Virus genome (UHGV): UHGV-2175977
Length of the DNA: 17,361 nucleotides
Reading direction: 5' to 3' (one strand)
Source of the DNA: a virus
Shown: positions 21-5,964 of the stretch, piece after piece
Numbering within the stretch: position 1 is the first letter of the stretch
Layout of the letters: each line of letters opens with the position of its first letter
Translations under genes and position numbers: made by a program
The notes under the pieces: model-generated
Databases searched by the model: none
The model's input: the letters and a program-made list of their open reading frames with translations, nothing else
What the model was told of the DNA's origin: nothing

Positions 21-659
21 ATGAAAAAGTTAACAGTGGCGGCTTTGGCAGTAACAACTCTTCTCTCTGGCAGTGCCTATGCGCATGAAGCAGGCGAATT
101 TTTTATGCGTGCAGGGTCTGCAACCGTACGTCCAACAGAAGGTGCTGGTGGTACGTTAGGAAGTCTGGGTGGATTCAGCGTGACCAATAACACGCAACTG
201 GGCCTGACGTTTACTTATATGGCGACCGATAACATTGGTGTGGAATTGCTGGCAGCGACGCCGTTCCGCCATAAAATCGGCACCCGGGCGACCGGCGATA
301 TTGCAACCGTTCATCATCTGCCGCCAACACTGATGGCGCAGTGGTATTTTGGTGATGCCAGCAGCAAATTCCGTCCTTACGTTGGGGCAGGTATTAACTA
401 CACCACCTTCTTTGATAATGGATTTAACGATCATGGCAAAGAGGCGGGGCTTTCCGATCTCAGTCTGAAAGATTCCTGGGGAGCTGCCGGGCAGGTGGGG
501 GTTGATTATCTGATTAACCGTGACTGGTTGGTTAACATGTCAGTGTGGTACATGGATATCGACACCACCGCCAGCTATAAATTTAATGGAACCCCCGTGA
601 AAGACGCGGTACGACTGGATCCGTGGGTGTTTATGTTCTCTGCCGGATACCGCTTCTAA
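21..659 (+). CDS. ompW: Outer membrane protein W (OmpW-family small beta-barrel), host gene
   Basis: 212-aa ORF; signal peptide MKKLTVAALAVTTLLSGSAYA then HEAGEFFMRAG; C-terminal ...FMFSAGYRF typical of OMP beta-barrel terminus; GGAG 6 nt upstream of ATG. Family assigned from recalled OmpW sequence, not searched. Confidence 0.9.
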   Translation: MKKLTVAALAVTTLLSGSAYAHEAGEFFMRAGSATVRPTEGAGGTLGSLGGFSVTNNTQLGLTFTYMATDNIGVELLAATPFRHKIGTRATGDIATVHHLPPTLMAQWYFGDASSKFRPYVGAGINYTTFFDNGFNDHGKEAGLSDLSLKDSWGAAGQVGVDYLINRDWLVNMSVWYMDIDTTASYKFNGTPVKDAVRLDPWVFMFSAGYRF

Positions 660-663
660 TTTT

Positions 664-698
664 CTCTGCAAAACCTCTGCAAAACTCTTCTGCAAAAC
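664..698. repeat. Three tandem direct repeats (TCTGCAAAAC at 665-674 and 676-685; CTGCAAAAC at 690-698) between ompW stop and int stop
   Basis: Read directly from sequence; sits at the host/prophage junction next to the integrase 3' end. Confidence 0.6.
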
Positions 699-720
699 TG
701 GTTATCAAATAACCAGTTTT
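694..720. terminator. Bidirectional intrinsic terminator shared by convergent ompW and int
   Basis: Perfect 11-bp inverted repeat AAAACTGGTTA (694-704) / TAACCAGTTTT (710-720) with 5-nt loop; A-run on one side, T-run on the other; int stop codon lies in the loop. Confidence 0.5.
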
Positions 721-5517: not shown

Positions 5518-5684
5518 GATGGCATCCTCAAGTGTTAAGTTAATTAACTCACCACCGAGGCTTTCCACGACCATAAGGGTGGCGAGACGTACAGGGGTGG
5601 AAATACCGGTCACTCGAGAACCCGGCCAGCCTTGCAGCTGCCCTGCACGCCCCACCATTATCTGAATGTGGCTGTGCATTACGC

Positions 5685-5709
5685 ATAAAAAAACCGCTTC
5701 GGCGCGGTT
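5685..5709 (-). terminator. Intrinsic terminator for leftward transcription (tL-like)
   Basis: On the minus strand AACCGC-gccgaa-GCGGTT hairpin followed by TTTTTTTAT (plus-strand 5685-5709). Confidence 0.5.
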
Positions 5710-5964
5710 ATGCGCTCGAGTAACTTTCGGGTTTCCACGCCCGGCACCCGTTTTATGAGGTGCAGGTGCACTATAATTCCACCCGTACTGGTTTTCAATA
5801 GCTACATTCAACATTTTCTCTTACCTTTCATCACCGAAGTGAACTTTGTTGATGCGGTACCTGGTGCCTCCAGGCGACGTTAACCAGTCTGTGTCCGGCG
5901 CACGCACTCCACCTCACCCGTGGAGAAGTCATTAATTACCAACCCTGGCCTTGTTGATTAGCTG

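Follow-up and report, generated by a model that had tools for sequence, protein, structure and literature searches.

For phage 21 and e14, repeated dodecamers were reportedly proposed as integrase arm sites by Wang et al. in 1997, and the minimal attP of phage 21 is said to have been placed at 366-418 bp in the same work. The general mechanism of lambda-type integrases has been described (PMC4880445). Among prophages inserted in ompW, those of STEC O145:H28, named PPompW, have an attachment site defined solely as a 121-bp imperfect duplication (Nakamura et al. 2021, PMC8112680). The same study, whose main text does not use the term 'arm-type', showed by PCR that PPompW relatives excise as attP circles, and it describes PPompW prophages as hosts of additional Stx phages (PMC8112680). 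Here, we analyzed a stretch of 17,361 nucleotides of viral DNA (the window), in which we recognize the left end of an E. coli prophage of the lambda-like PPompW type. The crossover interval, arm motif, distal motif copy and hairpin described below add detail to the published description of this attachment site. On the basis of sequence comparisons, we propose, with a probability of roughly 80%, that three short repeats between ompW and int are the P'-arm cluster of arm-type sites for the prophage integrase (Int).

The prophage boundary within ompW

E. coli DG341-1 (NZ_CM144243.1) contains the window at 100% identity, and in this genome ompW is followed by a lambda-like prophage. Twelve phage records match it at ~93%, and 11 of the 12 are 'PPompW' records from STEC O145:H28. 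Most PPompW records annotate a 121-bp 'duplication due to insertion' (as a repeat_region in LC567822.1, for example), which corresponds to positions 541-661 of the window. The preliminary description of this DNA had suggested that comparison with an unoccupied ompW locus would place the junction, and that repeats downstream of ompW in prophage-free strains would speak against its reading. In all of the sampled prophage-free genomes (rows H11-H28 of the match list), homology to the window ends at base 661, and the repeats are absent downstream of ompW; in the prophage-free K-12 derivative J53, unrelated DNA follows TAATT at the place where the window has its repeats. Because unoccupied loci diverge at 661, the repeats and the hairpin beside them are phage DNA. 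The junction between int and attL is present in 1729 of 5426 complete E. coli genomes, about one third, including O157:H7, O145:H28 and UTI89.

Where within ompW were the strands exchanged? The junction was mapped by a three-way alignment of attL (the window), attR of the same genome and attB of K-12. At the two informative positions, attL carries G545 and C563, attR carries C and T, and the K-12 attB carries G and T. On the right-hand side of 563, the ompW 3' end is the phage version in attL and the native host version in attR. This pattern of substitutions places the crossover within TGGTACATGGATATCGA, positions 546-562, which covers ompW codons 176-181 and within which the strand-exchange (overlap) region of the att core must fall. 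The suggestion that the repeats mark the attL of an ompW prophage was therefore correct as to the location of attL, but the repeats are not the junction itself, since the crossover lies ~100 bp upstream. The interval sits in an imperfect inverted repeat, GTGGTA-N12-(T/C)ACCAC, at 545-568, which is plausibly a pair of core-type sites.

The ompW gene of the window (21-659, + strand; Pfam OmpW, E 3e-79) is a chimera. Judged by the aligned sequences, the host contributes codons 1 to ~181 and the phage the last ~31 codons. The replacement 3' end, delimited by the 121-bp duplication annotation and the three-way alignment, occupies 563-661 (+ strand) and also serves as a spacer in the P' arm; in the attP of phage 204576, described below, the same segment stands between the P arm and the repeats.

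Other features of the window belong to the body of the prophage. Two Rfam matches exceed the gathering score, a C4 antisense RNA at 5575-5662 (- strand, 73.8 bits) and an isrK Hfq-binding RNA at 5687-5763 (- strand, 67.2 bits), and they lie in tandem inside or beside a Rha-family regulator gene. A ParD/ParE-type toxin-antitoxin pair is annotated at 11222-11784 (- strand) in the early region, and two phage-borne tRNA genes at 15370-15442 and 15447-15520 (+ strand; tRNA-Ile and tRNA-Arg in RefSeq) are located downstream of the Q antiterminator gene.

Repeats, distal copy and hairpin of the attachment site

The gap between the ompW stop codon (657-659) and the int stop codon (705-707, TGA on the - strand) measures 45 bp and holds three tandem copies of CTGCAAAAC on the + strand. 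We regard these as candidate arm-type Int sites that would be P'1-like (666-674, nearest the core), P'2-like (677-685, middle) and P'3-like (690-698, nearest int). No further copy occurs in the 17.4-kb window, in which the motif is expected 0.23 times by chance and in which three matches were reached by none of 200 shuffles. Tandem Repeats Finder delimits the array at 663-699 with a period of 11, 3.1 copies and a score of 58; the start-to-start spacing is 11 and then 13 bp. Read in the sense of int, the motif is GTTTTGCAG. The last 5 bp of the third copy (694-698) are shared with the left arm of the hairpin, of which they form the base. The triple repeat, the 45-bp gap and the overlap of the array with a perfect hairpin that includes the int stop codon had all been recognized in the preliminary description and hold up here; its ~10-bp repeat unit is in fact 11-13 bp, and its 11-bp stem is 12 bp.

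The three 9-mers are conserved in seven attL/attP sequences, except that one strain has a C-to-T change in one of its copies; the substitutions at attL are located between copies 2 and 3, in the spacer. Three copies are found in nearly all of the sampled members of this junction. Individual strains depart from this number or from the usual int reading frame: O55:H7 TB182A combines two copies with a T7 run, instead of T6, by which the C-terminus of int is frameshifted, strain 5444 has three copies with the same T7 frameshift, and CEC13002 has four copies.

The gene that follows the array, int (705-1835, - strand), encodes a heterobivalent tyrosine integrase of the lambda family with 376 aa. Its residues 2-71 match the arm-binding domain PF09003 (Arm-DNA-bind_1) at E 1e-21, the catalytic domain family PF00589 is matched at E 5e-16 and PF22022 is matched weakly. 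The protein aligns over its full length with the lambda Int structures 5j0n and 1z1b (E 1e-55, 36% identity), and the catalytic residues R226, K249, H331, R334, H354 and Y363 are invariant in an alignment with lambda Int and four relatives. For an Int of this type, arm-type sites are expected in attP. The start of int is overlapped by xis (1813-2061, - strand), which encodes an excisionase of 82 aa (PF07825 Exc, E 6e-8; 'excisionase' in RefSeq).

If the repeats are arm-type sites, the opposite arm might carry the motif as well, and the preliminary description had proposed a search for the same repeat at the prophage's opposite end. One exact copy of CTGCAAAAC was found there, the only one in 45 kb, ~125 bp to the phage side of the attR junction and ~140 bp from the core centre, in the orientation of the three window copies. 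The motif is expected 0.6 times per 45 kb, and its chance of falling in a given 150-bp stretch is ~0.002. An alignment of the attR side shows the distal copy to be invariant in 8/8 genomes, which represent five mosaic lineages, and similarity between the lineages starts exactly at this copy, which identifies it as the outer limit of a conserved attP module. A conserved A-tract lies downstream of the distal copy, and the P arm has one match (AATCAGGCAGTTA) to the IHF consensus WATCARNNNNTTR, kept in 8/8 attR sequences; the P' arm between core and repeats has no IHF consensus match. One candidate for a P2-like site, CTGAAAAAC, has a single mismatch in the genome of the window but is not conserved in other lineages; another possible P2-like sequence, GTTAAAAAC, is invariant yet overlaps the IHF-like site.

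An undivided attP is available from the excised form recorded as 'Escherichia phage 204576' (CP025907.1). It contains four copies of CTGCAAAAC, the sole ones in 4.5 kb, and none of the four is in attB. The elements follow one another in the order P-arm copy, core, ompW mimic, three copies, hairpin and int. Measured between the outermost copies, attP comprises ~286-290 bp (window-equivalent 413-698), or ~308 bp with the hairpin included.

The hairpin is formed by the inverted repeat AAAACTGGTTAT / ATAACCAGTTTT at 694-705 / 709-720, a stem of 12 bp with 100% complementarity and a loop of 3 nt, and it spans the int stop codon plus the final four codons of int. Its fold has z-scores of -5.96 on the + strand and -3.19 on the - strand, equalled by 0/200 shuffles, and the stem is directly followed by U6 on the + strand (the ompW end) and by U4 on the - strand (the int end). 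The stem is A/T-rich, with three G-C pairs in the window and four in other lineages; the corresponding energies are -12.1/-12.6 and -14.4/-14.9 kcal/mol. What separates the window from 6/6 other sequences is the pair of changes T703C and A711G, a T-A pair here versus a C-G pair there, where 703 is intergenic and 711 is a synonymous position of a Val codon in int. Either change singly would make the hairpin weaker on one of the two strands, and the two together are compensatory and keep the pairing on both strands in a single covariation event. These features suggest that the hairpin (694-720, both strands) is a bidirectional intrinsic terminator for the chimeric ompW and for int. We consider this probable and no stronger, because a simple consensus terminator scan did not call the hairpin and because the covariation amounts to one event; possibly the scan missed it since extension of the stem through AAAA/TTTT pairs may consume the T-run.

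How might these parts work together? In the free phage, attP would begin with a P1-like arm site at about -140 bp from the core centre and continue through the A-tract, the IHF-like site and the core (GTGGTACATGGATATCGATACCAC) to 99 bp of ompW mimic, the arm sites at about +114, +125 and +138, the hairpin and the int stop codon. Int would bridge arm and core sites by way of bent DNA, as in lambda, to give the integrative and excisive complexes. Upon integration, the P' cluster would stay beside int at attL while the single P-arm copy would pass to attR. The phage would interrupt ompW and supply a substitute 3' end, and the hairpin would take the place of the original terminator at the end of the chimeric ompW mRNA and would terminate int on the opposite strand. 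We infer Int binding, a role in recombination and terminator function from the sequences of these elements.

Equivalent arrays in related phages and alternative explanations

Relatives of int were gathered by tblastn against phage records. Integrases that are 45-50% identical to the one encoded in the window share its layout, with three TTTTG-type repeats right after the int stop codon. Phage 1H12, which is phage-21-like with an icd-type attP (Int 49.7% identical), has GTTTTGGGGAA three times in the int sense (TTTTGGGGA) and a fourth copy ~385 bp away in the same orientation. Triple TTTTGG-type repeats in the int sense are found in Providencia PSTCR8lys, Klebsiella ST13-OXA48phi12.4 and the potC-inserting 813R8. 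In e14 of K-12 (IntE 49%), TTTTGATAA occurs three times in the int sense (TATCAAAA) after the icd terminator (545-577 of extracted locus L024), and a distal copy lies ~125 bp inside the other end (886-897 of locus L028), with no second one in the 1.3 kb covered at that end. An sRNA overlapping an equivalent array was considered and dropped: C0293 lies ~240 nt beyond the e14 repeats, and svsR is located at the 3' end of cI.

In the int sense, the motif consists of a constant TTTTG joined to a half that differs between lineages, CAGAG in PPompW, GGGAA in the 21-like phage and ATAAC in e14. Of the six lineages measured, five have a spacing of 13 and then 11 bp and 1H12 has one of 13 and then 12 bp; the e14 repeat positions also give 13 and then 11. 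PPompW, e14 and 1H12 each have a 3+1 layout with their own motif in both arms. The match of each distal copy to the proximal array of its own lineage is the covariation expected of sites for diverging DNA-binding domains. A search for Int in genome contigs added a single locus, from E. albertii, which is too close for covariation. At that locus (E. albertii NBRC 107761, NZ_BBMY01000048.1), int is 96% identical and is accompanied by the same hairpin, three repeats and the ompW-3' mimic; left of the core there are just ~12 OmpW-like residues (YATARDWVRQLP) and no full ompW. The phage may have inserted there at a secondary site or at an attB copy that belongs to another prophage, or the ompW of this locus may be degraded.

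Lambda was used as the positive control for this arrangement. Its P'3-P'2-P'1 sites abut the int stop codon and its P1, oriented like them, is 137 bp away from the centre of the overlap, which bears out the analogy with the lambda P' arm drawn in the preliminary description.

What else could bind, or produce, such an array? Another recombination accessory protein, such as the excisionase, Fis or a different directionality factor, might bind the repeats in place of the N-terminal domain of Int. A xis gene is present, lambda Xis itself binds direct repeats (X1, X1.5 and X2) in attP (PMC4880445), and the sequence evidence does not tell which protein binds. The sites of lambda Xis, however, are confined to one arm and lie near the core, whereas the motif described here is found in both arms and at the outer limits of attP; its 3+1 layout resembles lambda P'1-3 plus P1, and it changes with the Int lineage, matching in both arms. 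We therefore regard binding by an accessory protein as quite unlikely.

The two other explanations do without a DNA-binding protein, and we give each of them very little weight. The array could be an RNA element of the chimeric ompW 3' UTR and not a DNA site, for instance an Hfq- or sRNA-type module that ends in the terminator hairpin, and its position between the ompW stop codon and the U6-tailed hairpin means that it must be co-transcribed with ompW. An Rfam search of positions 500-900, however, returned chance-level matches only (snoRNA, miRNA), nothing of this kind surrounds the fourth copy at the opposite prophage end, and the array of e14 comes after the icd terminator, not before it. 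In the relatives, moreover, the array follows int whatever the host gene or its orientation: potC in 813R8 is oriented as int, so that no convergent host gene has the array in its 3' UTR, and this layout indicates that the array travels with int and not with the host gene. An RNA function is accordingly very improbable. The array could also be a neutral tandem duplication, a slippage product with no function that happens to adjoin a fortuitous palindrome; copy numbers of 2 to 4 in rare strains are what slippage-prone tandem repeats would show. Against this, the junction is present in 1729 genomes and almost every member sampled has three copies, the layout and the 13+11 spacing recur with integrases merely 45-50% identical, a matched distal copy exists and the hairpin has undergone a compensatory change, all of which makes slippage an explanation with scarcely any probability.

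The chimeric OmpW and the place of this site among known systems

The C-terminus of the OmpW encoded in the window differs from that of native K-12 solely by ASYKFNGTPVKDA versus ANYKLGGAQQHDS. Across prophages, the phage-borne end of the gene (563-656, especially 572-608) varies with the prophage lineage in the segment between DIDTTA and VRLDPWVFMFSAGYRF: it reads ASYKFNGTPVKDA in the window, ANYKLGGAQQHDS in native K-12 and AKYKSGVTTVKDS in the O145-type PPompW, and in strain 21AH006 it is 5 aa longer. From OmpW topology, we take this variable segment to be the last extracellular loop. In a 2025 paper that never mentions prophages, OmpW figures among the outer membrane proteins with 'mosaic evolution' and a hypervariable region (PMC12175518), and OmpW is known to be a conjugation receptor for TraN-alpha (PMC10516633). 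Lysogeny by PPompW may explain part of the variability of OmpW and may alter its receptor properties.

Could the attachment site also link ompW to the state of the prophage? Because the array lies within the 3' UTR of the chimeric ompW and overlaps the presumptive terminator by 5 bp, a coupling of ompW termination or expression to the prophage state could be brought about by Int occupancy or by the array alone. The rewriting of the hypervariable loop could in addition be a form of lysogenic conversion. We offer this combined reading as an unlikely idea. Under it, the loop change could alter susceptibility to OmpW-dependent phages, to colicin S4 or to TraN-alpha-mediated conjugation, and the prophage-borne 3' end could explain part of the reported 'mosaic evolution' of ompW.

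The arm sites and the hairpin, as we read them, are an ordinary and previously unannotated part of the attachment site of ompW prophages. Their description sharpens the boundaries of these prophages, with a crossover at 546-562 and an attP of ~290 bp, and provides a testable recognition code for this clade of integrases, namely a constant TTTTG with a variable half of 4-5 nt, the 3+1 layout and the 13+11 spacing. Minimal att substrates could be designed from it if these integrases become tools. The understanding of lambda-type recombination is unchanged, and a specialist would not be surprised.

How does this site compare with those already described? The PPompW of O145:H28 is a prophage of the same type in the same ompW site, with an Int that is 96.5% identical; unlike it, the lineage of the window has its own hairpin variant and its own variant of the OmpW C-terminus. 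With lambda, the site shares three tandem direct repeats at the 3' end of int, a distal copy ~137-140 bp across the core, a homologous Int with the PF09003 domain, an adjacent xis and an IHF-like site in the P arm. It differs from lambda in its motif, GTTTTGCAG rather than the (C/A)AGTCACTAT type, and in its spacing of 13+11 bp, where lambda has contiguous 10-bp units. Lambda has both P1 and P2, whereas a single recognizable copy without a P2-like inverted one is present in the P arm here, and a hairpin separates the int stop codon from the array. Why are the repeats placed 114-138 bp from the core, ~55 bp further than the 58-80 bp of lambda? The greater distance arises because 99 bp of substitute ompW coding sequence intervene.

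The resemblance extends to phage 21 and e14. In these elements, as in PPompW, a host gene contains the site and receives a substitute 3' end from the element, and attP is long; three repeats spaced by 13+11(12) bp, a single distal copy and, in the same arm, a terminator-like hairpin are likewise common to them. The relatives' hairpin lies on the other side of the array, that is, on the host-gene side in phage 21 and e14 and on the int side here, and their target is icd instead of ompW. In e14, the array is moreover separated from intE by the cargo genes ymfD, ymfE and lit.
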